Shown here: in pieces, positions 4,060-61,700 of the stretch
Layout of the letters: each line of letters begins with the position of its first letter
Position numbering within the stretch: the stretch's first letter is position 1
From: Mobula hypostoma
Lineage: Eukaryota
DNA length: 64,000 nt
NCBI RefSeq assembly: GCF_963921235.1
Contig: NC_086108.1
Span: 59,274,001 to 59,338,000 of the forward strand
Direction: 5' to 3'
Made by a program: the position numbers and the translations under genes
Notes under the pieces: model-generated
The model's database searches: none
What the model was told of the DNA's origin: nothing
The model's input: the letters and a program-made list of their open reading frames with translations, nothing else

Positions 4060-5810
4060 ATCGGAAGAATAAAACTGCAGCTATGAAGATACCTGCAGCA
4101 TTCAGTGACCCTGTGATCTCTGACTCCGAGGTCAATGTCAGAACATCTTTCAAGAGGGTGGGCCCTTGCAATGCGATAAATCCTGATGGAGTACCACATA
4201 GGGCTCTGAAAACCAGTGCCACCCAACTGGAGGGTCTGTTCAAAGATAATTTCAATCTCATTGCTGCAGTTGGAAGTTTCCACCTGCTTCAGAAGGCAAC
4301 AATCATATCAGTACTCAAAAAGAGCAGTGAGAGTTGCCTTAACGACTATCATCCAATAGCTCACATCTAGGGTGATGAAATGGATGAAATGCTTTGAGAA
4401 GTTGGTTATGGTGAGAATAAATTTCTACCTCAGCAAGGACCTGGACCCCACTGCAATTTGCCTATCGTCATACACACAAAAAATGCTGATGAACGCTGCA
4501 GGCCAGGCAGCATCTATAGGAAGAGGTACAGTTGACTTTTCAGCTGTGTGTTGCTTGAATTTCCAGCATCTGCAGATTTCCTCGTGTTTGCCTATCGCCA
4601 CAATAGGTCTACAGCAGATTCAATCTCAATGGCTCTTCACGCAGCCTTGGATCACCTGGATAATACTAATACTTACATCAAGCTGCTGTTTATTGACTAC
4701 AGCTCAGCATTTAACACAATCATTCCCACAGTTGTTCTGATCAAAAAACTCCAGAATCTGGGCCCCCTAAAACTGGATCCTCAACTTCCTAATTGGAAGA
4801 CCACAATCTGTGCGGATCAGAAATAACATCTCCTCTTTTCTGATAATCAATACTGTCGTGCCTCAAGGATGTGTGTTTAGCCCACGGCAGTACGGTCTAC
4901 ACTCCTGACTGTGTGGCTAGACACAGTTAAAATGCCATCTATAGATTTGCTGATGACACAACTTGGCAGAATTTCAGATGGTGACGAGAAAGTGTACAGA
5001 AGCAAGATGGATCCGCTGGCTGACTGGTGTCACAGCAACAACCTTACACTTAGCATCAGCAAGACCAAAGAATTGATTGCAGATTTCAGAAAGGGTAAGA
5101 TGAGAGAACATACACTAGTCTTCATCAAGGGATCATAAGTGGAAAGGGTGAGCAATTTCAAGTTCATGGGTGTCAACATCTCTGAGGATCTATTTTGGGG
5201 CCAACACATCGATGCAAGGCACAACGGTAGATATACTTCATTAGGACTTTGAGGAGATTTGGTATATCACCAAAGACACTCGCAAATATCGACAGATATA
5301 CCATGGGGAGCATTCTAACTGGCTGCATCACCATCTAGTATGGGGGGAGGGTGGTGGGGGACCCTGCACAGCATTGAAATAAACTGTAGAAATTTGTAAA
5401 CTCAGTGAGCTCCATTGTGGGCACTCGCCTCCCCAGCATCCAGGGTTGATTCCTCAAAAAGGCAGCACCCATCATTAAGGACCACCATCACCCAGAACAT
5501 GCCCCCTTCTCATTGCTACCGTCAGGTAGGAGGTATAGGAACCGAAAGGCACACACTCAGTGATTCAGGAACAGCTTCTTCCCCTCTGCCATCTGATTTC
5601 TGAATGAATATTGAACCCATGAACACTACCTCACTACTTGTTAAAGGTTCTTTTGCAATGCTTTATTTAATTTAACTTTTTAATATATGGATACACAAAT
5701 ATTCTTCAATTTACAGTTTTTATTATTATGTATTGCAATTCTCTGCTGCCACATAACAAAGAAGTTTCAGACATATGCCAGTGATATTAAATATTATTCC
5801 GATTCTGATC
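4060..5810 (+). mobile_element. Decayed Rex1/Babar LINE
   Basis: Frameshifted RT pieces [44 protein letters not shown] and KTKELIADFRK; GATTCT-type tail near 5800. Confidence 0.85.
4471..4586. mobile_element. Short PLE-derived insertion with internal inversion, inside Rex1
   Basis: TSD TTTGCCTATCG(T/C)CA at 4457-4470 and 4587-4600. A minus-oriented segment (to ~4543) is joined to the plus-oriented family 3' end (tgtgtgttgcttgaatttccagcatctgcaga). Confidence 0.85.
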
Positions 5811-5814
5811 TGTC

Positions 5815-7210
5815 TCGAGTAAACTCAGTGATTTATAATTAAAGTGTACTTATGTCTTTCTTGCAAACATTTATAGGAAAAGAAGAAACGCAAAAGAATT
5901 TTAAGTGAAAGTTTACATGAAGACTGACAAACACCAATAAGCAAAAGAAGACAAACTAAAGAAATAAAAATAATAGGAGGAGAGGAGAAGATGGCAGCGC
6001 AACGCAGCGCGCAGCGGTCACTCCGGTGATGAATATCTGTTATTTGTCAAGTAGGGTGCTGTGTACAATTCTGATTTGATGGAGGCAGCATGAGAGCATG
6101 GAGGAACATCTGGTGAAACTTCTGAAATGCCTGTTTCGCTGCCGCTGCTACTGTGTGATCCAAAATTTCCAGAGGGGAAGGCCCCAAGTCCTCAGCTTTG
6201 CTTGTTGCTCAGCAGCCAGGGCAGGGTCGAAGTGCTCGGTGCTCGGTGTCGGAGGGCTGGTCGGAGGCTCGAAGCTTTCGGACGTACTCAGAGTCGGACT
6301 GTGGTCGGGTGCTTCCAGGGTGCTGCACTGGCAAGTTTGCGGCGCTGGAGGCTCATGGCAGGGAGAGTTTCTCCCTTCTACCGTCTGCGTGAGATGTTGG
6401 GGCTATCGGGACTTTGAGACTTTTTTTTACCCTGCCCATGGTCTGCTCTTTATCAAATTACGGTATTGCTTTGCACTGTTGTAACTATATGTTATAATTA
6501 TGTGGTTTTTTTCAGTTTTAGTCTTGGTCTGTCCTGTGTTTCTGTGATATCATACTGGAGGAACATTGTATCATTTCTCAATGCATGCATTTCTAAATGA
6601 CAATAAACGAGGACTGAGTGCCCTCATAATCTAATCTAATCTAATACCGAGAACATGAATGAAAGGAGCCCTTGAAAGTAAGTCTGTAGATTGCAGAATC
6701 AGTTGACGTGTTAGTGAATGCAGTTATCCATGCCAGTTCAGGAGCCTGATGGTTGTAGAGTAATAACTGCTCCTGAACCTGGAACCTACCACCCACCCAA
6801 CGAGAAGTGGGCATAACATGGATGGTGGGTATCTTCGATGATGGATGCTGCTTCCTTGTGGCAGCGCTCCATGTAAATATACTTAATGGCAGGAAAGGCT
6901 TTGATTCAGCCAACAACAGGTCCATCGTCGACAACTTAAATAAGCATTGGGGCTGTGCTTAGCCACACAATCATAAGTATAAATTGAGTAGTTCAAGGGT
7001 CTAAGCACACAGCTCTGTGCTGATGGTGAGTGTGAAGGAGACGTTATTGCCAATCTGTACTAACTGGTATCTGCTGGTGAGGAGATCAAGGATCCAATTG
7101 CACAGGGACGTACCGAGGCTCAGGTCTTGGAGCTGAATGTTGGGTTTCAAGGGGATGATAGTGTTGAATGCTGAGCTGACATATGCATCTTCATTGTCCA
7201 TATATTCCAG
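5815..7210 (-). mobile_element. Decayed Rex1/Babar 3' fragment, interrupted by a younger element
   Basis: Minus-strand SSAFNTIIP...[10 protein letters not shown] peptide (7001-7201); 3' UTR similar to other Rex1 copies; split at ~5976-6644. Confidence 0.7.
5976..6644 (+). mobile_element. Non-autonomous non-LTR retroelement (probably Rex1-mobilised)
   Basis: Begins near AAGATGGCAG, has a GC/CpG-rich body with no RT motif, and ends with AATAAA plus an (ATCTA)n tail; TAATA on both flanks. Confidence 0.6.
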
Positions 7211-9004
7211 AAATGGGTGAGCCTTTTAGTCCTCTTGGATGAATTCCTTTTAATCTAAGTACTGCCTTCCCCAAACGGTTAAACCTGATCTTTACACAAT
7301 ATTCTACAAGCAATCTTGCTAGGTCGCTATATAATTGGAACATCTTTACTCTTGTACTCAAATACTCTTGTTGATAAGGCCACTATATCACTTGAGTACC
7401 TAATCACTTGCTGTACTTGCATGATAACTTTTAATGGCTTTTCTACAATTGGTTTCGGAGATATACAATTACTTGCTCATCAAGACCTTGGATGTTCTGT
7501 GGACTCTTCGGATATAAAGCTGGTTTCAAAGTACAATACCATAGATAAGGTTATGGGTAAAATGAAAGTAAAATAGGACATGTATTTGCAGCAGCAGCAA
7601 AACTCAGTAATACTATTTCAGTTCAATGACCTAATATCACAATGTACCATTTCTCTTTTTTTGTGTTTAATTATTACATGTCCATATGTCGAGTAACATC
7701 ATTCCCACTTCATCCAGCACAGTCAATAAAGAGAAAATACTAGTGCAAATCAACTCTTTCCAGGTCCTCCCCAGTTTAAAAGCACCTGCCTTTTCGACAA
7801 CCCATATACTGCACATGAACAAGGTTACTGCTGTCTCTTGAAGGGCTGCCACCTGGGAACACAGTTTGTCGCCACGTTTCTGACTTGCAAATTGTCTGCG
7901 TTCTGAACAGTTCACAGGAATAGAACTCTGCTGTAACGTGGGCATGACCTGTAATGGGGTCGTTGCCCTGGAAGCTGGCATCAACCTGATGGGCTCTTTG
8001 GTCTCCTTCTCTGTCATTATGAGAAAACCTAATTGTAAAGTAAGCTTAAAATTGGCTTCAGAACTTTAAAAATTGTAGAGTTTCAAATCAAATTCAAAAT
8101 TAAGCTTGTCAATATTTTTGTTAAAACTCAAAGCTATAGAATTAGGAGCAAGGAGACTGGTTCATGACCTTGCTGATGGTAAATGTCACTAACTTTTTGA
8201 TATGTAATATATGCAAATTCTATTAGTTTTTCCAATGTCTTTTATAAATAACATTTGCTATGAAAAGTAGAATATTGCCATTTTAACAATCAAGATTTAT
8301 GGATGATTTGAATGAACAGGAAAGCTGCTGAAAACTGGCAACAAAACTATTATTTGGTATTTATTTTCACTCCCATATTGTGTGCCATTTATTGCAATTA
8401 AAGCAAACAAACTTTGGTATGAGGCCATAAGAAAAAAACCCACACTTTTTGAAAAGGATAGACTATTTTCACTTCTTGATGTACAATTGAAGTTATATAT
8501 ATTGAACTGAATAGAATATAAATTTAGTTGATATCATTAAAATAATTTATGTAAATAGGTGTATTTCATATGTTGCATCTTTTTTAAACAAACATAAATA
8601 TTCATCTTTTATTGTTACTGCTTACATTTGCCATTATACTTAGCTGAATAAGACAATCAATGTTCATCATTGACTATAAATGTAAACATAAGTATTAATG
8701 ATAAAAATTAACATTTATGTTTATTTGTTCTGTCAATTTTGTATTAAATTCTATAGTAATCTGTAGGAAAACAGTAAAACACTGTACCTTTTATGTGCCT
8801 GGTAGACATTCTCATCTTTATTTTAATTTGGATTACATCAAATTTGATGTTGGGTATTCTCCTATGCAACATAAAGTCTCTATTGAATACAGGCTGATAA
8901 AAATTTGCATAATTTGCATTTCTTGATTGGTATGGATATAGTGGGCCAAATTACCTGTTTCTTTGTCGTTTGACTCCATAACTCTCAGTACAAAACCACT
9001 CAAC

Positions 9005-10460
9005 TTGATTGGTAAGTTGATGGAGAAGATCCTGAGAGGCAGGATTTATGAACATTTGGAGAGGCATAATATGATTAGGAATATTCAGCATGGATTTGTC
9101 AAAGGCAGGTCGTGCCTTACAAGCTTGATTGAATTTTTTGAAGATGTGACTAAACACATTGATGAAGGTAGAGTAGTAGATGTAGTGTATATAGATTTCA
9201 ACAAGGCATTTGGCAAGGTACCCCATGCAAGACTAATTGAGAAAGTAATAAGGCATGGGATCCAAGGGGACATTGCCTTGTGGATCCAGAATTGGCTTAC
9301 CCACAGAAGGCAAAAAGTGTTTGTAGACAGGTCATATTCTGCATGGAGGTCGGTCACCAGTGGTGTGCCTCAGAGATCTGTTCTGGGACCCCTACTCTTC
9401 ATCATATTTATAAATGACCTGGATGAAAAAGTAGAGGGATGGGTTAGTAAATTTGCTGATGACACAAAGGTTGGAGATGTTGTGGATAGTGTGGAGGGCT
9501 GTCAGGGGTTACAGCCAGACATTGATAGGGTGCAAAACTGGGCTGAGAAGTGGCAGATGGAATTCAACCCAGATAAGTGTGAGGTGGTTCATTTTGGGAG
9601 GTCAAATATGATGACAGAATATAGTATTAATGGTAAGACTCTTGGCAGTTTGGAGGATCAGAGGGATCTTGGGGTCCGAGTCCATAAGACACTCAAAGCT
9701 GCTGCGCAGGTTGACTCTGTGGTTAAGAAGGCATACAGTGCATTGGCCTTCATCAATCATGGTACTGAGTTTTAAACACAAAATAATCTGCAGATGCTGG
9801 GGTCAAAGCAACACTCACAACACGCTGGAGGAACTCATGTGGAAAAGATCAGTCGACGTTTCGGGCCGGTATTGAGTTTACGAGCTGAGAAGTAATGTTG
9901 CAGCTATGTAGGACCCTGGTCAGAACCTGCTTGGAGTATTGTGCTCAGCTCTGGTCGCCACACTATAGGAAGGATGTGGAAACCATAGGAAGGGTGCAGA
10001 GGAGATTTACAAGGATGTTGCCTGGATTGGGGAGCATGCCTTATGAGAATAGGTTGAGTGAATTCGGCCTTTTTTCCTAGGAGCTACGGAGGGTGAGAGG
10101 TGACCTGATAGAGGTGTATAAGATGGTGAGAGGCAATGATTGTGTGGATAATCGGAGGCTTTTTCCCAGGGCTGAAATGGCTAGCATGAGAGTGCACAGT
10201 TTTAAGGTGTTTGGAAGTAGGTACAGAGGAGATATCAGTGCTCAGTTTTTTATGCAGAGAGTGGTGAGTGCGTGGAATGGGCTGCCGGCAATGGTGGTAG
10301 AGGAGGATACAATAGGGTCTTTTAAGAGACTCCTGGACAGGTACATGGAGCTCATAAAAATAGAGGGCTATGGGTAATCCTAGTTAATTTCTAAGGAAAT
10401 GACATGTTTGGCACAGCTTTATGGGTCGAAGGGCCTGTATTGTGCTGTAGGTTTTCTACA
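9005..10460 (+). mobile_element. 5'-truncated CR1 LINE interrupted by a PLE-derived insert
   Basis: RT ORF pieces 8963-9775, 9895-10080 and 10093-10377 (QHGFVKGRSCLTSL, KFADDTK); CR1 tail at ~10425-10460. Confidence 0.9.
9773..9867 (-). mobile_element. Short PLE-derived insertion, truncated within hammerhead stem II
   Basis: TSD GGTA(C/T)TGAGTTT at 9761-9772 and 9868-9879. The minus strand reads ggcccgaaacgtcgactg...cagcatctgcaga. Confidence 0.8.
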
Positions 10461-11191
10461 TTTTTATATTCCTTAACTTGCTTTCTGTAACCAATAATGA
10501 TTGTTATTGTAAATGGTACCTTGTTTCAGGTACTCTCCCCTCCATTTTACCTCCTCAAAATAGTCACCCTGAAGCCTTATTCTTGCAAATAACTCCTACC
10601 ATTTCCAATTTCGTTTTTTCTTTCTTAAGCTGTTGTCAATGCCAAAATCTGACCAGTCCTTCTTGCATTATGTCTGAAAGTCTCCACTTTTTCTATCCCT
10701 GTCACAGCACTAAATGTGCTCTAAAGACAGTAACAAATTATTTGACTATGATGGTGACTACGACATATCACCTTCAGACCATCCGCCACCAATATCTCTC
10801 CTCTATTGACCAGCCTAAGGAACAGATCTCACCTGTTCCCTCCTTTGAATCAATAGTTCAGTGTCTGCTTATCTCTTTAGACTACTATGAAGTTGGCTTA
10901 GACCATTCACATATGTTAAGTATGCTATTGCCACTCAATGTCCAACCATACATCCCCATTGTTAGAGGTAGAAATGGGTAAGGTTGGCCAACAGGGCTGT
11001 GGTGATGCTGTCTAGACCAATCCCCTGTACAATGGATGCAATGGATTGAAGAATTGTTGATGAACTCCAACCAAACTATCGACTTCGGAGGACGATGGAG
11101 ACGAGAGGTCATCGATGGCCTATGCTCCACTGGGAGCTAAGAGCGCAAGTAATTATGTTAGTAAATAAATACGCTATTGCTGGGTTTGAAG

Positions 11192-14580: not shown

Positions 14581-14582
14581 TT

Positions 14583-20028: not shown

Positions 20029-20052
20029 CAAGTTTCATTTGTCTCCTATACA

Positions 20053-20123
20053 GTTCTGATGAAAGGCCCTTGACTTAAAACGTTGACCTTGTTTCTCTTC
20101 CCACACATGCAGCCTGGCCTGCT
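20053..20123 (+). mobile_element. Degenerate PLE 3' end with decayed hammerhead motif
   Basis: ttctgatgaaaggcccttgacttaaaacgttgac...atgcagcctggcctgct resembles the intact family copies. Confidence 0.55.
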
Positions 20124-26524: not shown

Positions 26525-26616
26525 AAGGGTCTCGGCCCAAAACATTCATTGTTTACTCTTTTCCATAGATGCTGCCTGGGCTTCTGAGTTCCTCCAACAT
26601 TTTGTGATTTGTTGCT
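26525..26616 (+). mobile_element. Short PLE-derived insertion (older subfamily)
   Basis: aagggtctcggcccaaaac...catagatgctgcctgg...gttgct; AAGGAAAAGG repeated at 26519-26528 and 26617-26626. Confidence 0.7.
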
Positions 26617-27705
26617 AAGGAAAAGGACTTTGCAGTTCAAGACCAATTGGCCTCTTAATCAAATAAAATTAGTTTTACAATTATGCTAAAATTTTAGAAG
26701 GATGGTCTGAAAAGCACATCAGGCTTGAAATTCCACATTGAAACCATGTCAATCCTGATTAAAAATAAATCTATGTGGCAGTGCCTATTCAAGATGCTGC
26801 AAACACAAGATCCCAGAATATGTATGAAAATGCTGTTTGTCTCCATAGCACTGAAGGCACACTACTATTTATTGAATCAATACAAACCTCCTGCCTGCAG
26901 CATCATGCCTAACTAAAACTGTCATTTATCACTTGGAATCAATCAAATATAACGATTGGTAGGGGGCACAACTGAAAATTAGATAGGAAGATATTTAGCA
27001 ACTCATAAAAGAATTTGAGGAAGAAATTTATGCAGATGACTCAAAAATAGCATAGTCCTTTGAAAATTAGCTCAACCCAGAGTTTAGGGTATTGCTTACA
27101 TTTCTTTAAGTTTTCACACATCAGGAAATTCAACTCCATGATCTTCAATGGGATTTTCATTCTTTCTCACAATTTTCCTTTGGTATGAAACTTGAATAAA
27201 TGATGTCAATAAGAGTGCAAACCACAAGAATTGCCTCCAATAAGATTTTCAATTCAACTGGTGTGAAAAATGATAGATTTTTTACCCTATGAATAACCAC
27301 GTTTTAATACCCCTCATCCTTGGAACATTTTAACTATAAGGAAGTTGAGGATTATGGAGACAAAGTGGAAACATAGTATTGATCCAAGACGTGAGCTTAT
27401 TGAATGGTCTAGAGGCTGTTTGTCTGACTCATGTTTCTTACTTCCTTACGAAATTCCCCTGTACTTGAAAGTGTTTAGCTTGCATTGTAGTATATCCTTT
27501 TAAGACCATGCTGCAAAACTTGCAACTGAGATACAATATGCTGACAACCACCAGGCACTGTAATGCATTAATTGGCATTACTGAACTGAAATTAATAATA
27601 TCAAATTTAGGGAAAGCTGCAACACAGCTTTTACAGGTGTTGAACAGTTTTTGTTGTTGTATTAGAAAACTTGCATTGGAAAAATAATCAATTCTTGATC
27701 TCCAT

Positions 27706-27800
27706 GCAACACACACAAAATGCTGAAGAAACAGCAGGCCAGGCAGCATCTATGAAAAAAAGTATAGTCGACGTTTTGGGCCGAAACCCTTCAGCAGGAC
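27706..27800 (-). mobile_element. Short PLE-derived insertion with mutated hammerhead core
   Basis: The minus strand reads gtcctgctgaagggtttcggcccaaaacgtcgact...gatgctgcctggcctgctg...tgtgtgttgc. Confidence 0.75.
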
Positions 27801-28459
27801 CCTTTTCATGTTGCAATAGCTTATTAGTCAGATAGTAAGAGGCCAGACTGCATAAGTGCTTTTCCTCTTATAAAACTCAGACATTTTAAAGCCAGATAAT
27901 TTTTTTAACAAATTACACAGGCATTCCAAGATTAATTATTAATCCCTAGCTTTCATCCACAAGGGAAAATGATAATCAACAACATTTTCATGGGATAAAA
28001 CAAAAACATAGGAAATTTTCTGCAGTCAAAAGAGCATCTGTGACAAGGAAATTAGAATTAACATTCAGGTTAATGATATTTCATTAGCCCCTCTGTGAAA
28101 AAAATCATCATCCTGTTAAGTTAACATTGTTTCTCTCCTTAGAGTTGTAGTCTGATTTGCTGAGCATTTCAGTCACTTCCTATTTTGATTTAGCATCTGC
28201 AGAATTTAATCTTTTTAGGGTTTAAATGAGAAATTTTTCTTAATCACCATGAATTCTTGGTTTCCAACAAAATGTTATTTTTAATATTTATTTTCTATCC
28301 TTAGAAATTAAAGCTTCTCTTTAGTCCATTTCTTAGAAAGGTGTCAAATTGCATCAAATATGGTCATTTTATATAGAAAATATCTAAATATCTAGAAAAT
28401 ATGGACAGCATTCAGTTGTAAATCCATTGTAAGTATAGTTGCAATGGGCACAAACCTGA

Positions 28460-29745
28460 CTGTCCACACCCTCAACAATTTTTCCTTCAGCTCCCCCCAC
28501 TTTCTCCAGACTCAAGGTGTAGCCATGGCATCTCATGGGCCCCAGCTATGCCTGCCTTTTCATTGGCTACGTAGAACTGTCTATGTTCCAAGCCTTGTGC
28601 GGCAATGCTCCCCCAACTCTTCCTCCACTGCATTGGTACTGCTTCTTGCAGCCATGCTGAGATCATCGATTTCAACAACTTTGCCTCCAACTCCCATCCT
28701 GCCCTTGAATTCACTTGCTCTATTTCTGAAACCTTGCTCCCCTTTCTCGATCTCCCTTTCTCTATTGATGGACAAACTGTTGACTGGCAACTTTTATAAA
28801 CCTACGGATTCTCACAGTTATCTTGACTATACCTCTTCCCACCCTGACTTCTATAAAAATGCTATTCCCTTTTTCTCAGTTCCTTTGTCTCCACCACACC
28901 TGTTCCCAGAATGCAGCTTTCCTTTTCAGGATATCAGATATATCCCATTCTTCAAGGAACAGGGTTTCCCTTCCCCTACTATTGACGCTGCCCTCACCTA
29001 CATCTTCTCCATTTCGTGAACATCCACATCCCAAAGAGCCTTTCCAGGTGAGGCAATGCTTGACCTGTGAACCTTCTGGGGTTGTCTATTGGGTTCGGTG
29101 CTGCTGATACGACATCCTCTACATCAGTGAGAACTGTCATAAATTGGGGACACTGCTTCATCAATCACCTCCTCTGCATCTGCCAAAAACAGAACTTCCC
29201 TGTGGCCAAGCATTTTAATTCTGATTCCCATTTCCACTGTGACATGTTGGTCCATGGTCTCTTGTGCGATGAAGAGGTCACCCTCAGGGTGGAGGAGCAA
29301 CACCATATGTATTCCATCTGAGTAGTCTCCTACCTGATGCATAAATATTGATTTCTTCTTCCAGAAAAAATAATCCCTTCCCCTCTCCTCTTTTTCTATT
29401 CCCCACTCTGGCCTCTTACCTCTTCTCACCTGCTTATCACTTTCTCCTGGGCTCCCTCCTCCTTCTCCTTCTCCTATGGTCCACTCACCTCTCTTATCAG
29501 ATTCCTCCCTCTCCAGCCTTTTACTTTTCCTGCCCACCTGGCTTCACCTATCACCTTCTAGTCATCCTCCCTCCCCTCTCCCACCTTTTTATTCTGGTGC
29601 CTTTTCTCTTCCTTTCCTGTTCTGAAGAAGGGCCCCGACCCAAAAAGTCGACTGTTTATTCATTTCCATAGATGCTTCCTGACCTGCTGTGTTCCTCCAG
29701 CATTTTACATATTGCTTTGGATTGCCAGTATTTGCAGAATTTCTC
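28460..29745 (+). mobile_element. Decayed Penelope-like element (RT plus GIY-YIG remnant)
   Basis: Frameshifted motifs FLQTQGVAM..GP, LPFLDL, FYKPTDSHSYLDYTSSHP and GIY-YIG-like VVYWVRC...LYISE. These are followed by a pyrimidine-rich UTR, a degenerate hammerhead (ctgaagaagggccccgacccaaaaagtcgact, ~29622-29653) and the family 3' end. Confidence 0.85.
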
Positions 29746-31775: not shown

Positions 31776-32384
31776 AATTTGCATTTTTCTCTGTGTATTT
31801 GTAGGAGATTTTCCAACCACTTTACCAGAGCAGGTTTTTATTTCCAACTATAAGTAATACAATTTTCTTGTTTCAAATTGTTATTCCAATTACACCAATC
31901 AAAAGGGAATTTTCTAGATTTCTTCACTGCAATTTAGACTTAGAAAATGCAGAATAGTATTAGAGGGGATAAGACAGGGGTGTCTGCAGTTCATATGTTA
32001 TGAGTTTTGCCCAGTAACCTTTGAATTTGGAGTGCAAAGCAGGCCTACCTTCATTGCACCTGTTTTCAAGCAATCATGAAACAATGGTCAAGGTGCACTG
32101 TAGCTCCATCATGTTCGTACGATGCTTAATCACACCGCCACTTTTATTTTCCATTCAACTTATACTTGCTCAGCATTATACCTACACCTCCCTTCAAAAT
32201 CTTCAAAATATTTTGAATCTAATGTTCAGTTTTCAAAAGACTGACACAGCATATTCTCCTACATGAAGACTTATATTTTTCAATAGCAATATAATGTTAA
32301 GTCTGAGCTGTTCAAAGGTTAGCTGATAGCTACTATTTTGGGATAATTATTCAAATAACCTGCATCTGATTAAATGTAGTTACC

Positions 32385-36403: not shown

Positions 36404-36665
36404 CTGTGGTTAAAACCTACTTGTTTTCTATTCTATTTTGGGAAGGAAACTTACTACCATGTCTGGTCTGCCTGATATCATTTCAAATGGCCAATTTATC
36501 ACATATAACGGTGACAGTTCAAGGCCATCAGCATCATTTCAAGAAAAATAAAGTGACAGATAAATTTAAACAACAGGAATTCTGCAGATGCTGGAAATTC
36601 AAGCAACACACATCAAAGTTGCTGGTGAACGCAGCAGGCCAAGCAGCATCTATAGGAAGAGGCGC

Positions 36666-36701
36666 AGTCGACGTTTCAGGCCGAGACCCTTCGTCAGGAC
36701 T
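36666..36701 (-). ncRNA. Minimal type I hammerhead ribozyme motif
   Basis: The minus strand reads AGUC CUGACGA AGGGUCUCGGCCU GAAA CGUC GACU. Confidence 0.8.
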
Positions 36702-37045
36702 AACTGAAGGAAGAATGAGTAAGGGATTTGAAAGCTGGAGGGGGAGGGGGAGATGCAAAATGATAGGAGAAGACAGGAGGGGGAGGGATAGAGCCGAGAG
36801 CTGGACAGGTGATAGGCAAAAGGGGATACGAGAGGATCATGGGACAGGAGGTCCGGGAAGAAAGACGGGGGGGGGGAGTGTCTTTCTTCCCGGACCTCCT
36901 GTCCCATGATCCTCTCGTATCCCCTTTTGCCTATCACCTGTCCAGCTCTCCGGCTCTATCCCTCCCCCTCCTGTCTTCTCCTATCATTTTGCATCTCCCC
37001 CTCCCCCTCCAGCTTTCAAATCCCTTACTCATTCTTCCTTCAGTT

Positions 37046-37081
37046 AGTCCTGACGAAGGGTCTCGGCCCGAAACGTCGACT
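37046..37081 (+). ncRNA. Minimal type I hammerhead ribozyme motif
   Basis: AGUC (stem I), CUGACGA core, A, GGGU-CUCG-GCCC (stem II), GAAA, CGUC, GACU. Helix III is the palindrome ACGU; predicted cleavage after C37077. Confidence 0.82.
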
Positions 37082-39732
37082 GCGCCTCTTCCTATAGATG
37101 CTGCTTGGCCTGCTGCGTTCACCAGCAACTTTGATGTGTGTTGACAGATAAATTTTTCCCTTTCCAATAATGTCCAATGGCTGAGAGTAAATTAAAGCAA
37201 AATGATCGGTAATTTGTTGGGAGGGGGATGCTTGCAACTTGATTATGAATAATTGCCTGAATTCAGTGCATAGAGCTGATATTAGATCTGATATCATGTT
37301 TACGGTAACATCTGCTATATTAATAAATAGCAGGTGCTGAAATCTGTAACTCTGTTAGCTTTACTGCAAACATGCTATTTATAATAACTTAATTTTGCTG
37401 AAATAAAATTAGGGGATATTCAGTCGTGTTGCTGAGAGCAGCCTGCATTAATGGTGTGTGGCCTTGTGATAGGAATGGGTGGCTTGCAGCAGTCTTTAAC
37501 TTTGCTGTAAGAATCCCATATCCAATGCACGCATTACCAAAGTGGCATACACATAGTACTGGCAAATCCAGGCCTTGCATTTAAAAATAGTACATACAGA
37601 ACTTTCCTTAGCAAAGTGCCACTCTGTGGTAAGGGGGATTGTGAAAAAAGTGGTGGGAAAATTCATGGAGTTGATGCTGATTGGCAAGAAGATGTTCAGG
37701 GAGAAGGTCAGGGAATTGGAGAGAAGTGCAAAGTGAGGTGGGAGAAGATTCGTGTGGGTTTGAGGATGCTGCTGTGAGGACAAATGTGATTAACAAACTC
37801 AGAAAATGATTTGGGAGTCTGGATTATGGTGTGAAGATATGAATAAAGAATATGGATCATTGGGCTACCTCCAGCACATCCTTAGGTTGTGTTGCCTGTT
37901 AATGCAAATAATGCATTTCACTGTATGTTTTAGTGTACATGTGACAAATAAATGAATCAAAATCTAAACCTGGACTGTAAGCTAGATAAACAATACTAAG
38001 GAAAATTGGAAAGGGAAGCCAAAGAACAGCTTAGGGAGGGGGTGGAGATAAAGTGGTGAAATAAGAAACAGAACTTGCTAGGAAGAGACTCAAAGGGCTA
38101 TGGAGGACACTGGCAGTGAATAGAAAGTACTAGTGGGGTGAGGAAGAGAAAACAGGTTGAAGTTATCACTCAGAGTATGAGGATAAAACAAGAATTGACC
38201 TCAATGACTCTTGAAGAATCTTCGCCATTGGATCCCATAACCTCATTCACAGTAGGGATAAAATTATATTTGCAAGTATACAATATTGCACTACAACGTA
38301 GAGTTTCTTGGCTAAAAAGTTATAAAATCCCTGGGAAATGGCTAACAAAAAGAAAGAAGGAGGATGGTCTTTGGAAGAGTGGAAACCAGGAAAAATTAAG
38401 TGACAAAAATAATGAACATTTAAGAAAACAGGACAAAAACTAGGATATGAAGTAACAAGATGGGGATAATGATCATGCAACTAAGAATAGGTGAACTATT
38501 GTACCATTTGTATTCTGAAAATAAAAGGGAAATGTTTTCACTGAATTTAAACATTGATTTGGGAAAGCTTTACTATAAATAGTCTAAATGAGAGGAGAAA
38601 AGCTGTTTCTCAGGTTTAGGTAGAATTTCACTCAGACAATGTAAGAGGCTGAATAGAGTATGACAGCGAATTAAAATGATAGACCAGAAGTTTAAGAGGT
38701 ATTTCATGGGGGTGCTTATTTGATCTGTATGTGGTCTGTCTTACAGAAAGGAAACTACATTATGATCAGCAGTTTACTAAGAATATTAAAATAAAAGAAT
38801 TACAAACTTCTATTTTATCCTGAAACAGCATTTGGGGTCTTTGACAGTCAGCATAGAGGTAACAGGACAGATATTACATGGGCCATTTTCCGCTATGCAG
38901 ATAGAAGCCAATGTTGTGGCTGTACTGAAACAACTCGGCCAAGGGAACATCCTCTTTGTGGCTTTCTTGTGGTTTATTACAATTACATAGACCATTTCAG
39001 AGGATAGAAGACAACCAGACTGCTGTGAGCCTGGAGTCATGGTTAGGCCAGACCAGGTAAAGATGGTAAACTTCCACCCCTACAAGACATTAGTCAACAT
39101 TCACAACAACCAACTATGATTTTCATGGCTGCCATTAGACTTTTTAATTATGTTTGAATAACTTTTAATAACTTAGGAATCCGAATTTTTCACTATCTGC
39201 CATGGTGAGATTCCCAGAATTTTCCTCTGGCTATCTAGATTATTAATCCAGAGATAATATCACTTGCCATCAGATCTCCAATTATCAGTGATGCAATGAG
39301 CACTATTTCATCAAAGTTTCTTTTTTCATTCTGACAAATGGATGCCTGTACTTGGAATCTAATATTTTATTCTTTCACTTTGTCAAGCAACCCATGGTAT
39401 CTATATACTCTCAATTTCTGAATTACTGGTGAGTAACAACCACAATCCCTCAATTTTAATTGACATTTTACGCAAGCATGTTGCTGTTAGATAGTTTTCT
39501 TGAGTTATTTTTTGCTGTACTCTAACGTCACTTCTGTGTTTTTAAAATACACATTTGAAAAACTTTCTTTAAACTGTAAAATTTATTCCATTTGAAGGGT
39601 AGACATATAGTGACTTTTTTACAAGAGGTTTCTATTGTTGCCTAGTTGTTTTAATTTTTACATATTTTTGAAGCAGAGGATCAATACCTTGCTCGATACA
39701 GAATCTGCAGTCTTTTACCTATCCTCACTACC

Positions 39733-45300: not shown

Positions 45301-45481
45301 TGTGGATGACACGAAGCTGGGTGGCAGTGTTAGCTGTGAGAAGGATGCTAAGAGGATGCAGGGTGAATTGGATAGGTTAGGTAAGTGGACAAATTCATGG
45401 CAGATGCAATTTAATGTGGATAAATGTGAGGTTATCCACTTTGGTGGCAAGAACAGGAAAACAGGTTTTTATCTGAATGGT

Positions 45482-45934
45482 CACACGAGGAATTCTGCAG
45501 ATGCTGGAAATTCAAGCAACGCACATCAAAGTTGCTGGTGAACGCAGCAGGCCAGGCAGCATCTCTAGGAAGAGGAACAGTTGACATTTCAGGCTGAGAC
45601 CCTTCGTCAGGACTAACTGAAGAAAGAGCTAGTAAGAGATTTAAAAGTGGGAGGGGGAGGGGGATCTCCAAAATGATAGAAGAAGACAGGAGGGGGAGGG
45701 ATGAAGCCAAGAGTTGGACAGGTGATTGGCAAAAGAGGTATGAGAGGATCATGGGACAGGAGGCCCAGGGAGAATGAAAAGGGGGAAGGGGGGAAGCCCA
45801 GAGGATGGGCACCCCTCTGACTATACCCCTTGCCCATCCTTTCTTCAGTTAGTCCTGACGAAGGGTCTCGGCCTGAAACGTCGACTGTACCTCTTCCTAG
45901 AGATGCTGCCTGGCCTGCTGCGTTCACCAGCAAA
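45482..45934. mobile_element. Fold-back PLE-derived insertion nested in CR1
   Basis: TSD TTATCTGAATGGT at 45469-45481 and 45935-45947; inverted arms at ~45532-45626 and 45840-45933. Confidence 0.92.
45851..45886 (+). ncRNA. Minimal type I hammerhead ribozyme motif
   Basis: AGUC CUGACGA AGGGUCUCGGCCU GAAA CGUC GACU. The mirror copy on the minus strand (~45579-45614) has CpG-type mutations (GAAAUGUC AACU). Confidence 0.8.
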
Positions 45935-48900
45935 TTATCTGAATGGTGGCCGATTAGGAAAAGTGGAGGTGCAATGAGACCTGGGTGTCATTGTACACCA
46001 GTCATTGAAAGTGGGCATGCAGGTACAGCAGGCAGTGAAAAAGGTGAATGGTATGCTGGCATTCATAGCAAAAGGATTCGAGTACGTGAGCAGGGTGGTA
46101 CAGTACTACTGCATTTGTACAAGGACTTGGTGAGACCACACCTAGAATATTGTGTGCAATTTTGGTCCCCTAATCTGAGGAAAGACATTCTTGCCATAGA
46201 GGGAGTATAAAGAAGGTTCACCAGATTGATTCCTGGGATGGCAGGACTTTCATATGATGAAAAACTGGATTGACTAAGCTTATACCCTCTGGAATTTAGA
46301 AGATTGAGGGGGGATCTGATTGAAACATATAAAATTCTAAAGGGATTGGACAGGCTAGATGCAGGAAGATTGTTCCCAATGTTGGGGAAGTCCAGAATGA
46401 GGGGTCACAGTTTGAGGATAAAGGGGAAGCCTTTTAGGATCGAGATGAGGAAAAACTTCTTCACACAGAGAGTGGTGAATCTGTGGAATTCTCTGCCACA
46501 GGAAACAGTTGAGGCCAGTTCATTGGCTATATTTAAGAGGGAGTTAGATATGGCCCTTGTGACTAAAGGGATCGGGGGTATGGAGAGAAAGCAGGTACAG
46601 GGTTCTGAGTTGGATGATCAGCCATGATCATACTGAATGGCGGTGCAGGCTCGAAGGGCCGAATGGCCTACTCCTGCACCTATGTTCTATGTTTCTATGA
46701 TTCTATGCTATAGGGAAGTGCAGTAGGAGTCAGTACAAGGAAGAGTGGAAAGACATCAGTACCAAAATAAAGTCAAGGAGTTATCAGGAAATTAAGTGAC
46801 TGGTTCGAGAATGGAGACAGATAAGGAAACAGTGGAAGAAAGCCCCAGATAGTGAGAGGGAAGGCCTCAAGCAACTTCAAGCAGACATCAAGAGCCGGCT
46901 GACAAAGTTGTGAACAGTTAAGAACCAAAAGAATCTGCGCAGAAAGAAAGAACAAGCAAGAACACAGTTCTACAGATATCCTTTTAATTTCATTAAAGGA
47001 GTCTTCACACCAGAAAAAAGTGGAACCTTGAAAACAGCAAAGCTGGAACAAGAAGAGCACCTGGAAAAGATTCACAATGACTTGAGAAGGCAGGAACATA
47101 TGATCCTTCCTTCCGACATCTCGCCAATTCAGCTCCCCCACCCACCACCTGGATTTTGATCCTCCAAAATGGAGAGAAATGGAGAAGGCAGTCCGATGGC
47201 AAAAGCAGCATCTGCTCAGAGACCTAATGGGGGTACCATATAGGCCTTATAACAACGCACTGGATGTCTTGTTGTTTCTCTGGAGGCTCATGAGGATAGT
47301 GCGGCAGAGGTGAATAACACTCAAAATGTGGCAAAGGGCTGGTGGTGTCCTGATTCCAGAAGAAAAGGATGCAGAAAACGTCAGTCAGTTTTGACTATTC
47401 TGCCTTCTGAACATCAAGGGGAAAATCTTCTTTACTGTAATAGCACAGAGGCTGGCCAGCTACCTGGAGAGAAACAAATACTTTGATACATCTGTATAGA
47501 AAGCTGGAATTCCAGGGTTTTCCGGGTGTTTGGAACATACAAGCATGATATGGCACCAGATCCAAGCAGCTAGGAAGGACAAAAGAAATCTCTGTGTGAT
47601 CTTCCTGGACTTCGCCAATGCATTCGGCTCTATTCCCCATGCACTCTTCTGGGAAGCATTTGACTTCTTCCAGGTAGCAGAGTCTATCACAATGCTGGTA
47701 AAGTTGTACTTTCAAGACCGGCAATTGTGCTCCACAACAGCAGCAGATTTTACCACAACATGGCAGAGACTGGAAGAAGGCATTTTGGCAGGTTGCACTG
47801 TATCACCCCCGGCCTTCACAATGGCCATGGAGATCATCATCAGGGCTTCAAGATGGATGGTAGATGGTGAAAGATCAAGTGCTGGACTTCATCTTCCCCC
47901 TATTAGATCGTGTATGGAAGATTTAACAACATTAACCACTACTGCAGCATGCACCAAGAAACTACTTGGAAAGTTGCAGGAAAACATCAAGTGGGCCAGA
48001 ATGAAAATCAAACCCAGCAAGTCACGAAGCATCTCCATAGTCAAGGGAATGCTGAAAGACATTAAGTTCTTCCTCGGTGATGACGCCGGCCAGACTCGGT
48101 TCTCTGGTCCAATTCATTACAGAGCGTCTACATCATAGAACTCACAGACCTGTGGGAGGATTCAGAGGCTGAAGCATATGAGCGCAAGAGGCTACGCTTT
48201 AGATCTAGCAGCTGAAGCTCCGCGACAGGGCTGGAAAACCAAAGCTGGTCCTGTGGAAGTTGCTTGTAGGGGATTTATAGCCACATTCACCATCAACTTG
48301 CTGAAGGAGCTAGGGATCTATAGTCAGACTCTCCAGCAAACTACCAGAGCCACATCAGAGCTGCAGAAAGAAGCCTTGGATCAAGCGAAAAGATCTCGCC
48401 TGGGCTCTTTTTCATCCCACATCAAATTTAGGCTCAATTCTTTTCTGTCGTAAAATTACATCAGATGTGAATTCTTCAGTGCCTTAGGAAGGTGCTTAAA
48501 TTGGGAAACGGAGAAAATAAGTTTGGCTGAAGAACATGGCTAGAGGGTTGAAAGCAGCTTGGGTAGAAAAAGGACAAGTGGTAGGAAAAAGGCAGGAAAT
48601 AGAGCTGGAGGAAACATGGATGTGCTGGGGTCAGGACTATTAGAATCAGCAATACATTTAGATTAGCTGTTGGGAATTGGGCATGCAGTTTGACCACAGT
48701 CCAAAGCAGGCAGCAGGATTAAGATACTAGCAGTGTTAGGGTGGTATGGTAAAGGCAGCAGGGTTATATATTAAGCATAACCTTTAAGGAAGATCCACCC
48801 CTACTTGACACAGGACAACTTGGACACAAATCAGCATACGCTGGTTCCCTCTAACACCTCAACTCTTTAGTTAAGATATGCTTCTGTATAAATCAGCAGT

Positions 48901-54394: not shown

Positions 54395-54722
54395 AAACAT
54401 AGAAACATAGAAAGACTACAACACAATACAGGCCTTTCGGCCCACAATGCTGTGCCAAACATGTACTTAATTTAGACATTACCTAGGGTTACCCATAGCC
54501 CTCTATTTTTCTACGCTCCATGTACCAATCCAGGAGTCTTTTAAAAGACCCTATCGTATCAGCCTCCACCACCATTGCTAGCAGCCCATTCCATGCACTC
54601 ACCACTCTCTGCATAAAAACTTACTCCTGACATCTTCTCTGTACCTACTTCCAAGCACCTTAAAACTGTGCCTTCTCGTGTTCGCCATTTCAGCCCTGGG
54701 AAAAAGCCTCTGACTATCCACA
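54395..54722 (-). mobile_element. CR1 3' fragment
   Basis: (AAACATAG)n tail and the reverse complement of the CR1 3' UTR and ORF end. Confidence 0.85.
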
Positions 54723-54829
54723 AGTATCAAAGAGAGAGAATGATGTAGAGAAGGAGAGGAGAGAGAGTATGTAAAGGTCAGTGTAAGCAGCTTACTACAC
54801 TTGGCATTCTATTAGTAAACATCATAGAG

Positions 54830-55110
54830 ACATTGACATATAGCAGGCTCTTCGACCCATCAGGTCATGCTGTCTGTTAATAACACAGTTTACACTAATC
54901 ATATAGTAAACCCATTTTTATTCTTCTTACATTCTCTTCAATTTCCCCCACACTCTACCAAACACCTGCACATGAGATCAATTTACAATAACTAAGTAAC
55001 AGGACCATACTGAGGAAACTCATACGGTCACAGAGAGAACATCCAAAGTGCACATAGACAACACCCAAGATCAGTACCAGAGTCCGGTACTGTGAGTTGG
55101 AGGCTCAACT
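54830..55110 (-). mobile_element. Degenerate V-SINE/CR1-tail element
   Basis: gaggaaactcatacggtcacagagagaacatccaaagtgcacatagac resembles the reverse complement of the SINE at 31497. Confidence 0.55.
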
Positions 55111-57579: not shown

Positions 57580-58663
57580 TATTTGTTTTTTTTTAAACCT
57601 GGTTAAATTTAATCACATCTTTGCAACTCAAAATCAGATGGAACTATATTTTTGTTACCCTATTGGCACTTTCATTCAAGATATGACAGGTTTATTTTTG
57701 AATTTTTAGAATCTCAGTTAGCCCACAACATGTTTACGAATGCAGATAAATAGCAGAAATCCTCCACGAGCCAAAAAGTCCTTTTGTACTGTATCTCTGA
57801 ATGGAAAGAAAGCCAATATCATTTTTGAAGAAATGAAAATAAGATCAGAAGTAAACTTTAGCAATGTGCTGTGCAGGAGGAACAACAAGCAGAACAGCTA
57901 GGTAATTGAATATATAACAAAACAATGTGAATGACATGGCATTTACACAGCCCTGTACTGCATTTAAAGAAAATCATTCAAACCAACAGGTCAATCAACA
58001 TTTGTGTTCTGTATGAGTTTCCACCTGTGCAGCTTCATAATACATTAATAATACTGTCAGCTCTGTATGAGCAGGCACTTACCAGTCTCCACCCAGGTAA
58101 CAGAAGTTACATGCCACTCATTTCCAACTCATCACCTGCAGCCTATTTAAACCTAGCTCTTATCCGCAATCCTTCTCCACTCATACAAACTGGCCAGCCT
58201 CAAACAGATGCTCCCAGCCTTCAGTTAACTTATTGCCTTGTCATGTTAAGTATCTGTTCTCTCTTATTTTGTGGCCCCTTGTCACTTGTTTATTATTAAA
58301 GTTATCATTCTCTGTTGGGATGTGGACCACAGATTACAAATGAGAAAAGAAAAGGCAATGTCAAAGGGGAAAAGTTATGATATCATGGGAGTTTTCAACA
58401 TACAGGTCGATTGGGAAAATCAATTACGAAATGAATCTCAAGAGAGTGAGTGTGTTGAATGTCTATGAGATGGCTTTTTAGAGCAGTTTGTCATTGAGCC
58501 TACTGGGAGATCAGCTATACTGGATTGTGTGTTATGTAATGAACCAAAGGTGATTAAGGACCTTAAGGTAAAAGAACCCCTCGGAGACAGTGATCACAAT
58601 ATGTTTTAGTTCAAAGTTGCTGGTGAACGCAGCAGGCCAGGCAGCATCTATAGGAAGAGGCGC

Positions 58664-58699
58664 AGTCGACGTTTCAGGCCGAGACCCTTCGTCAGGACT
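58664..58699 (-). ncRNA. Minimal type I hammerhead ribozyme motif
   Basis: Exact mirror of 58700-58735. Confidence 0.8.
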
Positions 58700-58735
58700 A
58701 GTCCTGACGAAGGGTCTCGGCCTGAAACGTCGACT
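58700..58735 (+). ncRNA. Minimal type I hammerhead ribozyme motif
   Basis: AGUC CUGACGA AGGGUCUCGGCCU GAAA CGUC GACU; predicted cleavage after C58731. Confidence 0.82.
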
Positions 58736-61700
58736 GCGCCTCTTCCTATAGATGCTGCCTGGCCTGCTGCGTTCACCAGCAACTTTGATGTATGTTGCTT
58801 GAATTTCCAGCATCTGCAGAATTCCTGTTGTTTATGTTTTAGTTCAACTTGGTTTTGTTGGGAGAAAGTAAAATCTGATGTAGCAATACTTCAGTGGAGT
58901 AAAGGAAATTACAGCGGTATGAGAGAAGAGTTGGCCAAAGTAAATTGGAAAGAGATGCTGGTAGGGATGACAACAGACCAGCAATGGTGTGAGTTTCTGG
59001 GAAAAACTGAGGAAGATGCAGGATAGATGTATTGCAAAAATGAAGAAATACCCAAATGGCAAAACAGTACAACTATGGCTAACAAGAGAAGTGAATGCTA
59101 ATGTAAAATCAAAAGAGAGGGTATACAACAACACAAAAATTAGTGGGAAGCCAGAGGGTTGGGAAGCTTTTGAAACCCGACAGAGAGCAACTAAAAGAAT
59201 CATTAGAAGGGAAAAGATGAAATATGAAAGTAAGCTAGCAAATAATATCAAGGTGGATCATAAAAGTTTTTTTCCAATATGTTAAAAATAAAAGAGAAAT
59301 GAGAGTCAACATAGGACCACTAGAAAATGAGGAAGGAAAAATAATAGCATGGGACAAGGAGATGACTGATGAACTAAATAAGTATTATGTATCAGTCTTT
59401 AATGTGGAAGACACTAGAAGTGTGCCAAATGTTGAAGGATGTGAGGGAAGAGGAGTGAATGCAGTCACTATTGCAAGGGAGAAGATGCTTAAAAAACTGA
59501 AAGACCTAATGGTACGTAAGTCACCTGGATCAGACGAACAGCACCCTAGGGTTCTGAAAGAGGTAGTGGTAGAGATTGTAGAGGCATTTGTAATGATCTT
59601 TCAAAAATCATTGGAACCTGGCATGGTGCTAGGGGACTGGAAAATTGTAAATGTCACTGCACTCTTTAAGAAAGTAGGAAGGCAGCAGAAAGGAAATTAT
59701 AGACCAGTTAGCCTGACCTCGGTGGTTGGGAAGATGTTGCAGTCAATTGGTAAGGATGAGGTTATGGAGTACTTGATGACACAGGACAAGATAGGTCAAA
59801 GTTAGCATGGCTTATTACGGGAAAATCTTGTCTAACTAACCTGTTGGAATTCTTTGAGGAGATTACATGTAGGGTAGATAAAGGGGTTGTTGTGGAATTT
59901 CAGAAGGCCTTTCACAAGGTGCCACATGTGACGCAAAGTTAAGAGCCCATGGTATTACAGGAAAGGTACTGGCATGATTCGAGCATCGGCTAATTGATAG
60001 GAGGCAGTGAGTGGATATAAAAGGATCCTTTTCTGGTTGGCTGCCAGTGCTTAGTGGTGTTCTGCAGGGGTTGGTGTTGGGACCACCTCTTTTTATGTTG
60101 TATATCAATGATTTCAATGATAGGATAGATAGCTTTGTTGCCAAGTTTGCAGATGATCTGAAGATTTGTGGAGGGGCAGGTAGTTTTGAGGAAATAGGTA
60201 GCTGCAGTTGACTTAGACAGATTAGGAGAATAGGCAAGAGAGTGGCAAACGAAACACAGTGTTGGAAAATGCATGGAAAATACTACTTTGATAGCAGAAA
60301 TACATATGCAAACTATTTTCTAAATGGGGAAATAATCCAAAATTCTGAGATACAAATGGACTCGGAAGTCCCTGTGCAAAACACCCTAAAGGTTAACATG
60401 CAGGCAACTGGTGGTGAGGAAGCCAAATGCAATGTTAGCATTCATTTCAAAATGTCTAGAATACATAAGCAGGGATGTGATACTGAGGCTTTATAAGACA
60501 CTGGTGAGACCTCACTTTGAGTATTGTGAACAGTTTTGGGATCCTCATCTCAGAAAAGATGTGCTGGCATTGGAGAGTGTAGGGTCCAGAGGAGGTTCAC
60601 AAGGATGATTTCAGGAGCAAAAGGAACATACGAGGAACATTTGATAGTTCTGGGTCTGTACTCGCTGGAATTTAGAAGGATGAGGGAGGTCTCATTGAAA
60701 CCTTTTGAATGTTGAAAGGCTAGACAGAGTAAGTGTGTACAGGATGTTTCCCATGGAGGAGATGTCTGGGACAAAAGAGCGCAGCCTCAGGATAGAGGGG
60801 CATCCATTTAAAACAGAGATGTGGAGAAATTTCTTTAACTAGAGGGTGGAGAATTTGTGGAATTTATTACCATAGGCAGCTGTGGAGGCCAGGTCATTGG
60901 GTGTATTTAAAGCAGAACTTGATAGGTTCTCGATTGGACACAACATCAAAGGTCACAGGAAGAAGGCCGGAATGTGGGGCTGAGGAGGGGGAGAAAAGGA
61001 TCAGCCATGATTGAGTGGTACAGCAGACTCGATGGGGCAAGTAGCCTAATTCTACTCCTATGTCTTATGGTCTCAAGTTGCCTCTGCTGTCCTGCATCTG
61101 TGTCATTCTTCCTCTACATTTCCTGACAAATATGACCTTCTTTATCTCTACTGAACTTAACCGTTTCTTGGAAGCCCTCTGTTGTTTATCTAAATAAGTA
61201 TGTATGTGTTAATAAGCTTATTCCAAAATACCTTCATTAAAAAAAAGATAACTTTCCCCAATTCTTTATGCTTATTGTGACTACCTCATGTTATTATCAT
61301 AGTTTTTGGCTCTGAAACAAATGGAACCATATTTTTCAATGTCCCTTTCAAATTCAATTTTAAAAACTTCCAGAAGTAAATTCCCTACCTTACCTCCTTC
61401 AGTCTTTCCTGATCATAAATAAGTTCTCTATTCTGGTATTATCCTTGTTTTTTTGCCATTTTCTCCAGTATCTCTTAATGTTTTTGAAATAAGAAGACCA
61501 AAACCATGCCCGTTACTTAAGATGGAGTCTTACTTTAATTCTTACAACATTTAAAATAACTTTTGATTTTAAAATTTATTCCTCTAATGAGTTGCTGTGC
61601 TTTGTTGACATATCTTATTGTCTAATAATCATGTATCACAGCTTTCATGATTTGTTCTGACAAAGTATCTTCAGCTTGAAATGTCCCATAGATGTTGCCT

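Follow-up and report, generated by a model that had tools for sequence, protein, structure and literature searches.

Paired 3′ ends and head-to-head arms in a hammerhead-bearing Penelope-like element of the ray Mobula hypostoma

The 64,000 nucleotides of Mobula hypostoma DNA analysed here (contig NC_086108.1, positions 59,274,001 to 59,338,000; hereafter the window) carry short repeats with hammerhead ribozyme motifs, and these are almost certainly 5′-truncated copies of an autonomous Penelope-like element (PLE). Young copies end at one of two 3′ sites about 37 nt apart, and where two copies are joined head to head within a single target site duplication (TSD), one arm nearly always has the longer end and its partner the shorter. 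The preferred reading, with a probability of about 0.7, is that of a 5′-truncated autonomous PLE with a Neptune-type linker, whose inverted pairs are made by programmed twin priming by a symmetric pair of enzymes, likely on the same RNA. Within it, the use of two primers per inverted insertion is quite probable, and the combination of one RNA with a symmetric dimer is evenly balanced.

Signed positions count from the predicted site of hammerhead cleavage, +1 being the first base after GUC, and the labels long (tailed) and short (tailless) describe an arm's 3′ end. Coordinates follow one natural copy (locus L081, minus strand), and arm ends were taken from BLAST alignments, with an accuracy of a few bases. 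Sampling drew mainly on the initial 10 Mb of one contig and on the window's own contig; many were picked by exact 31-mers at +20..+50, so the sample is biased to young copies. The classified set comprises 138 insertions (52 doubles, 12 miniature doubles or minis, and 74 singles). The TSD finder gave no match of at least 8 bp at any of 80 random positions. Copy numbers were counted by exact pattern matching in the 3.48 Gb genome, and extrapolations rest on 974 kb of unselected DNA from two contigs.

The 3′ ends of 189 young arms are bimodal, with 102 at +45..76, 85 at +90..114 and 2 between. Of the 52 doubles, 51 combine a tailed with a tailless arm and one an intermediate with a tailless arm; none has two tailed or two tailless arms. 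Independent choice of ends would give 48% tailed-tailless pairs (p 9e-17). Ten of the 12 minis are paired in the same way, the other two having a mis-called partner end, as are all 26 doubles among validation loci, 13 of which were picked by perfect junction. Among 15 palindromes picked by perfect junction, one has a further-truncated arm and one is ambiguous. A third set, picked by upstream patterns, gave eight tailed-tailless pairs, one tailed-tailed and one tailless-tailless; two of its rows, including the tailless pair, are artefacts in which the reference locus mapped to itself. Seven older doubles with both arms aligned show the same asymmetry in most cases. Doubles and minis account for 19 of 33 unbiased young insertions, and some apparent singles are in fact doubles, the second arm being hidden beyond the edge of the fetched sequence or by an internal gap.

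The target site is similarly two-sided. The TSD has a median length of 14 bp, and 63 of 91 fall at 13-15 bp. In the 52 doubles, an excess of A is seen at -8, -7 and -3 beyond both TSD ends (58-71% and 50-58%, versus a background of 29%), a pattern that recurs in 24 singles and 39 validation sites. The reconstructed empty sites also show enrichment of C at -5, and background composition at -20..-10. AA is found on both sides at 26/76 and 12/39 sites, compared with 4.6% at random; a third set of 12 target sites is too small to display the both-sided preference. Such a two-fold symmetric preference, spanning about 30 bp, would be expected from a pair of like nuclease domains.

The two arms of a double are also coupled in length. 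Both are short in 27 of the 52 doubles, both long in 20, and mixed in 5 (odds ratio 135; rank correlation 0.72); the corresponding validation figures are 20 (13 of them picked by junction), 4 and 2. Four of 16 long doubles stop no more than 12 nt apart, against 0.7 expected (p 0.003). Of 506 polymorphic site calls, 61 (12%) are discordant between partner arms, compared with 34% in shuffled pairs. When 13 long doubles were compared (the last three pairs being left out), five near-symmetric ones had the partner as nearest copy, with 1-2 rare variants in common.

At the 5′ side, breakpoints pile up at the foot of helix I. The hazard is 0.028 per base at -37..-22, versus 0.002 upstream (55 of 152 arms at risk), and 0.021 per base at the same positions in the validation loci (14/50). 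TSD-bounded singles start at -35..-27 in 14 of 30 cases. Positions -35 and -31 match the initiator consensus YYANWYY. Contigs from four runs of other samples have loose ends at +67/68, +107 and -31/-33, and are uninformative on starts, strand and level. For old copies TSDs are mostly unrecoverable, and their pile-up at -31 is indistinguishable from an alignment edge.

The copies in the window are as follows.

58611..58833: perfect head-to-head double; minus arm -32..+57, tailless; plus arm -32..+102, tailed; TSD 58600-58614 / 58833-58847.
58659-58701 (minus strand) and 58698-58740 (plus strand): the two intact minimal hammerhead cores of the 58611 double.
36568..37143: head-to-head double with two intact cores; the minus arm (-205..+102) is tailed and the plus arm (-196..+66) tailless; arm mismatch at 1 of 252 sites; TSD 36554-36567 / 37142-37155.
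45482..45936: head-to-head double within a CR1-like long interspersed nuclear element (LINE) fragment; its tailed minus arm, which reaches about -223, has a degenerate core; its tailless plus arm starts at about -55 and keeps an intact core at 45849; TSD 45469-45481 / 45935-45947.
4471..4591: miniature double without a hammerhead core; minus arm -9..+64, tailless; plus arm +58..+104, barely beyond the tail; arm overlap minimal, resembling an L1 twin-priming product; TSD 4457-4470 / 4587-4600.
9773..9867, minus strand: older-lineage single, tailed, with an internal deletion; start within helix II (by eye); TSD 9761-9772 / 9868-9879.
26525..26617, plus strand: older-lineage copy, tailless, with its 5′ end in helix II; identity to the young reference 73%; 10-bp TSD 26519-26528 / 26617-26626.
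27706..27800, minus strand: older-lineage copy without a tail, spanning -30..+67; A6 is replaced by C in the core (CUGCUGA); search for a TSD negative.
28441..29745, plus strand: older 5′-truncated PLE; candidate TSD 28428-28440 / 29746-29758.

All seven short insertions of the first-pass annotation are present where it had placed them, and TSDs of 10-15 bp, which it had reported for most, are seen in six of the seven (not at 27706). The single end sequence that they were thought to share resolves into the two 3′ ends about 37 nt apart. The five cores described as AGUC-CUGACGA-helix II-GAAACGUC-GACU exist, at 36703(-), 37044(+), 45849(+), 58701(-) and 58698(+); they are held by only three insertions (36568, 45482 and 58611), each a head-to-head inverted double. 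Nor do the seven form one very young family, since they fall into several lineages by identity to the young reference: 90-100% for 36568, 45482 and 58611, 86-91% for 4471, 70-79% for 26525 and 27706 as well as for the longer 28460-29745 element, and no match for 9773.

That longer element, taken earlier as a decayed reverse transcriptase (RT) plus GIY-YIG element, lies where it was claimed. By tblastn with the young open reading frame (ORF), its C-terminal RT part is 44% identical in amino acids to residues 634-825 and its GIY-YIG part 52%; a Pfam search of its six frames gave no relevant match. It also has an internal deletion, a pyrimidine-rich pseudo-long terminal repeat (pLTR), a degenerate hammerhead and a tailed end, and its 13-bp candidate TSD has 2 mismatches. 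A weak match to the hammerhead end at 20052-20123 (74%, E 4e-4) is likely another decayed copy.

In the proposed mechanism, both strands of the target would be nicked, about 14 bp apart, by an enzyme pair that is likely two-fold symmetric. Two cDNAs would begin, each at its own fixed site; the two sites lie 37 nt apart, likely on a single RNA molecule. The 3′ ends of the cDNAs may then be joined by short homology; an overlap of 1-6 nt is found at the junction in 22 of the 52 doubles. A single copy would arise when one primer fails. The very short class would represent run-off to a fixed RNA 5′ end near -31/-35, at an initiator-like site, with priming in the 5′ copy of the pLTR, and the hammerhead would be carried along uncut, without setting boundaries. 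The protein of the Anolis carolinensis PLE Poseidon (PAc) cuts and extends both strands, with two internal start sites delimiting the tail, and it uses uncut RNA and is a predicted dimer (PMC11167929). Extended to PLEs at large, the proposal is a tentative one: integration might be obligately two-ended, with a symmetric RT-nuclease dimer, a 14-bp staggered cut and two hard-wired starts on one RNA, so that the tail would be the footprint between active sites, inverted repeats the normal product, and the 100-140-nt stubs run-off products that map the RNA 5′ end to the first base of the hammerhead. If so, cleavage would remove the capped leader, and one mechanism would cover three long-unexplained PLE traits.

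Several observations weigh against the preferred reading. Across the genome the step at -31 is only moderate, in that 79% of 36-mers extend by 7 nt and 87% by a further 7 nt. The -31 region is also a conserved polypyrimidine-YAG splice acceptor, so that it can be read in two ways, a transcription start being one of them. None of nine long loci had an intact full-length ORF; L081 lacks the catalytic YIDD, which is kept in other copies that are themselves broken elsewhere. About 10% of diagnostic sites are discordant between partner arms, versus a background of 2.5%, and the arms of L250 are two different haplotypes. In eight asymmetric long doubles the partner is not the nearest copy and there are no rare variants in common; near-symmetric arms could have been homogenised after insertion. 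Given the discordant haplotypes and the asymmetric long doubles, some doubles are likely derived from two RNAs. One double, L082, is tailed at both ends; it has no TSD, its junction is common to L089 only, and it is likely rearranged.

L082 and L089 (G000:C1 at about 399,800 and 1,824,700) lie 1.4 Mb apart in opposite orientation, with an identical inversion junction (-822/-2647) and unrelated flanks, likely an ectopic conversion or an inversion breakpoint. A propagating inverted subfamily arising from this junction was rejected, the junction being present at only two places genome-wide. At L196 (1837-3967), three segments lie within one TSD: a tailed arm, an inverted internal piece of the ORF and a long tailless arm.

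The 5′ pile-up may alternatively be due to a splice acceptor at the foot of helix I, or to stalling there, and this explanation is doubtful. Young and old lineages alike retain a polypyrimidine tract, a TACTAAC-like branch point at about -46 and, at -32..-30, a YAG; ends are slightly in excess at -60..-38. In Drosophila virilis, helix I marks the end of an intron (PMC4209133), with the start placed 46+75 nt upstream (PMC2377424). However, no common upstream exon is joined at -29 in 168 cores classified as non-adjacent (rows read by eye), and in many singles the TSD directly adjoins -35..-27. Neither spliced copies nor captured first exons were seen among the inspected copies, which favours run-off to an RNA 5′ end. 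In the short copies L003 and L312, a few bases of -35..-27 are duplicated at the 5′ junction, as from enzyme slippage at a template end. Many young copies (for example, the region 45590-45640 on the minus strand of the window, and L046) have a perfect TACTAAC, a polypyrimidine tract and an AG before helix I at -51..-30 of the pLTR; at such copy number they could serve as cryptic splice acceptors in host introns.

For the doubles, an unlikely alternative to twin priming on one RNA is dual priming, in which two RNAs would be used, each enzyme priming from its own at one nick, and the two protomers would be committed to different start sites. It would account for the minority of doubles with discordant haplotypes (e.g., L250 and L190) and for the lack of common rare variants in the asymmetric long doubles, and it has been postulated for L1 (PMC2837659). 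Two independent RNAs would leave the strict pairing of a tailed with a tailless arm, and the coupled lengths, without a simple reason, and the excess of long doubles stopping within 12 nt of each other also speaks against them. Fold-back self-priming, in which one cDNA copies itself into the inverted arm (self-priming is proposed in PMC3846280), is improbable. It is suggested by the near-perfect palindromes with short central overlaps, among them 53 exact copies of the 58611-type junction, and by partner arms that often have variants in common. Since only the tailed cDNA can template a tailless arm, the tailed arm would have to exceed its partner in length, yet the tailless partner exceeds it in 12 of 20 long doubles and in minis, 4471 for example; tailless singles with clean TSDs also exist. 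Fold-back is thus contradicted as a general mechanism, although it may hold for some symmetric copies.

The first-pass annotation had offered two origins for the short copies, a retrozyme-like non-autonomous family or 5′-truncated products of an autonomous PLE, and it is the second that stands. An independent family of about 100-140 nt, retrozyme-like or resembling a short interspersed nuclear element and mobilised in trans, is very improbable. About half of the young arms do begin at -46 or later, 55 of 189 within -37..-22, and the TSD-bounded singles cluster as described. However, the 5′ breakpoints of the 189 young arms are continuous from +26 to -3069, reaching the RT/GIY-YIG ORF, and each of the four main haplotypes mixes short and long copies (GT 18/13, AG 46/48, AT 16/5, AC 5/14), which already interleave in the +1..+103 region of the sample. 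There are no tandem monomer arrays among the 138 classified insertions, and no lineage with a fixed head and private diagnostic sites was found; the short copies have unique flanks and no common head. They are inferred to be dead on arrival.

The hammerhead motif itself matches the published minimal PLE hammerhead, with a conserved core, helices I and II and a palindromic helix III. A minimal-hammerhead descriptor gave 23 matches in the 974 kb, and 0, 0 and 0 in three shuffles. Helix cells are 89% paired, compared with 16-47% in slid controls; covariation is limited to one cell changed on both sides, not above shuffles (20 hand-picked related copies). An Rfam gathering search of the window returned 0 matches, so the check with the Hammerhead_1 model proposed earlier would miss these motifs. 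Cleavage as dimers, for which the copies had been thought poised, is not borne out: where one insertion holds two cores they are on opposite strands, which makes the known dimer impossible for them, and the predicted minimum-energy folds of monomer and dimer are inactive, being more stable than the open-core monomer by 4 kcal/mol and than the double hammerhead by 17-19 kcal/mol. Stronger conservation of the core than of its flanks, another earlier expectation, did not emerge among individual copies (0.97% of core positions differ versus 1.29% in the flanks); the core decays like its flanks, and the decay of single copies is neutral. Across lineages the core is kept, and -35..-32 and +6..+14 are variable. 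A change of core A6 to C (CUGCUGA / CUGCCGA) is present in 13 of 51 old arms, including 27706-27800 in the window, and this older lineage still spread, which suggests that the change is tolerated. That self-cleavage sets the boundaries of the short copies is barely credible despite the intact catalytic core and palindromic helix III of the source lineage, because only 4 of 189 5′ ends lie within -2..+4, copies extend 60-105 nt beyond the site on its 3′ side, the predicted folds are inactive, and self-cleavage was dispensable in vitro for Anolis PLE insertion (PMC11167929). In the same study the PAc ribozyme required protein.

RNA read through a head-to-head double would be expected to form a long perfect hairpin, and the family scatters perfect hairpins across the genome. 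One-strand A-to-G scars were not found: 0 of 204 arms have at least three A>G changes, and two have three T>C.

An open GIY-YIG frame is reached by walking upstream of the stub ends. L081 is a whole pLTR-ORF-pLTR unit with a 3,513-bp period, a 1,043-codon open frame and a 244-bp direct repeat; L084 is a longer partial tandem with a 950-bp direct repeat, and its unit is 97% alike to L081. Matches to RVT_1 (E 2.5e-5, in L054) and GIY-YIG (PF01541, E 1.7e-4) are under the gathering score. The RT motifs, the CxxxCxxC linker and the nuclease CxxC are kept in an alignment of 54 related sequences, and the nuclease has YCxxCxxCxxLYIGET, with the CxxC placed between GIY and YIG, plus HF and downstream histidines. 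The linker between RT and nuclease (CKRNKCYTC), also kept in relatives, fits the CX2-5CxxC Zn-finger-like motif of Neptune and Nematis. Judged by this linker motif, rather than by a tree with named references, the element would fit either of these clades. The lineage was likely inherited across elasmobranchs, because the nearest named proteins are those of Mobula hypostoma (87-94%), Hypanus (78-81%), and Chiloscyllium and Rhincodon (68-71%). The L081 ORF carries a 120-residue Pro/Ser-rich insertion after the N-terminal domain (residues ~165-285) that is absent from 53 aligned relatives. On the minus strand of L081 (oriented 5050-9070), this full-length young copy is nested in an older inverted double, within its short arm; the TSD of that double encloses the entire complex.

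A high-copy, recently active hammerhead-bearing PLE lineage in a fish had been proposed, and the counts agree with it. The exact sequence -31..+4 occurs 32,886 times in the genome, -38..+4 26,076 times and -45..+4 22,591 times; two variants of +20..+50 occur 61,310 and 21,290 times, and an ORF 35-mer about 1.1 kb upstream 5,872 times, with 0 for all reversed controls. The unselected DNA contains 51 young arms and 133 end segments, from which totals of about 180,000 young arms and 475,000 end segments are estimated. Young copies make up about 3% of the sampled DNA and all copies about 5%. In young arms, 1.3% of non-CpG sites and 8% of CpG sites depart from the majority base.

Other repeats are present in the window. 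CR1-like LINE fragments at 672-2247 and 44662-46707 are 92-95% identical, the second being split by the 45482 insertion, and further LINE RT fragments lie at 8942-9775, 32370-33639, 40540-41958, 47500-48138 and 59239-60910. Another repeat family, in both orientations and 80-86% alike, is found at 3160-3380, 10143-10474 and 54392-54722.

The element is an ordinary Neptune-type PLE with a hammerhead like that of all its kind, and its hammerhead, inverted copy and tail are already published PLE traits. It resembles the endonuclease-containing (EN+) PLEs Neptune and Nematis (PMC8557442) in its single RT ORF with a C-terminal GIY-YIG domain carrying CxxC, its extra Cys linker motif, pLTRs, partial tandems, heavy 5′ truncation, an adjacent inverted 5′-truncated copy, a 30-40-bp tail at one end, and TSDs. 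An inverted 5′-truncated copy and a one-sided tail of 30-40 bp are typical of PLEs (PMC8557442, PMC3846280, PMC2377424), and their origin is named as open in PMC8557442. In contrast to the EN+ PLEs described there, no microsatellite targeting was seen in the ray element; what it shows is a symmetric preference, though a weak one, for AA-N3-A in the sequence flanking a TSD of 13-15 bp. The one-sided tail is optional in that description but follows a nearly strict, counted rule here. In Chlamydomonas, too, PLE insertions can be very short, with a median of 128 bp (PMC9977147).

The hammerhead shares with the minimal type I hammerheads of metazoan PLEs (PMC4209133) the CUGANGA/GAAA core, the extra A before helix II, the G10.1-Y11.1 pair, a helix I of 4-5 bp and a palindromic loopless helix III; helix II is 4 bp long in the ray element, compared with 7-8 bp. 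The 32,886 exact copies of one word compare with about 9,000 motifs in Xenopus and 4,000 in the coelacanth, and hammerhead pairs on opposite strands, 100-700 bp apart, occur in Schistosoma (PMC4209133). Minimal PLE hammerheads are also treated in a review (PMC6765202). PAc (PMC11167929) likewise has two internal RT starts delimiting the tail, cutting and extension of both strands, and a hammerhead upstream of the start sites. Its ATG lies inside helix II and its start sites are AC-rich, whereas in the ray element the ATG is about 140 nt downstream of the cleavage site and the start sites are G/U-rich; the available part of the PAc study gives no strand difference in start-site use and no per-insertion count of pairing. 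The animal non-LTR retrozymes (10.64898/2026.07.22.740005) similarly have a type I hammerhead related to PLE pLTRs and are non-coding, with one chondrichthyan reported; they form head-to-tail tandem arrays, whereas the ray copies are dispersed, TSD-bounded singles and doubles continuous with a coding element.

L1 twin or dual priming (PMC2837659) also involves primers on opposite target strands and an inverted insertion within one TSD. There the second primer is at variable sites and inversion comes with deletion, whereas in the ray element both sites are fixed, the arms mostly duplicate each other and doubles are the majority. In the literature covered, which did not extend to Arkhipova 2006, Evgen'ev and Arkhipova 2005, Repbase, Dfam or supplements, no end-pairing count, symmetric target motif or description of the ray family was found. 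What the present analysis adds is geometry, namely the end pairing, the arm coupling and the symmetric target preference, and as a data set these countable rules discriminate between twin priming, dual priming and fold-back and are testable in the Anolis in vitro system.

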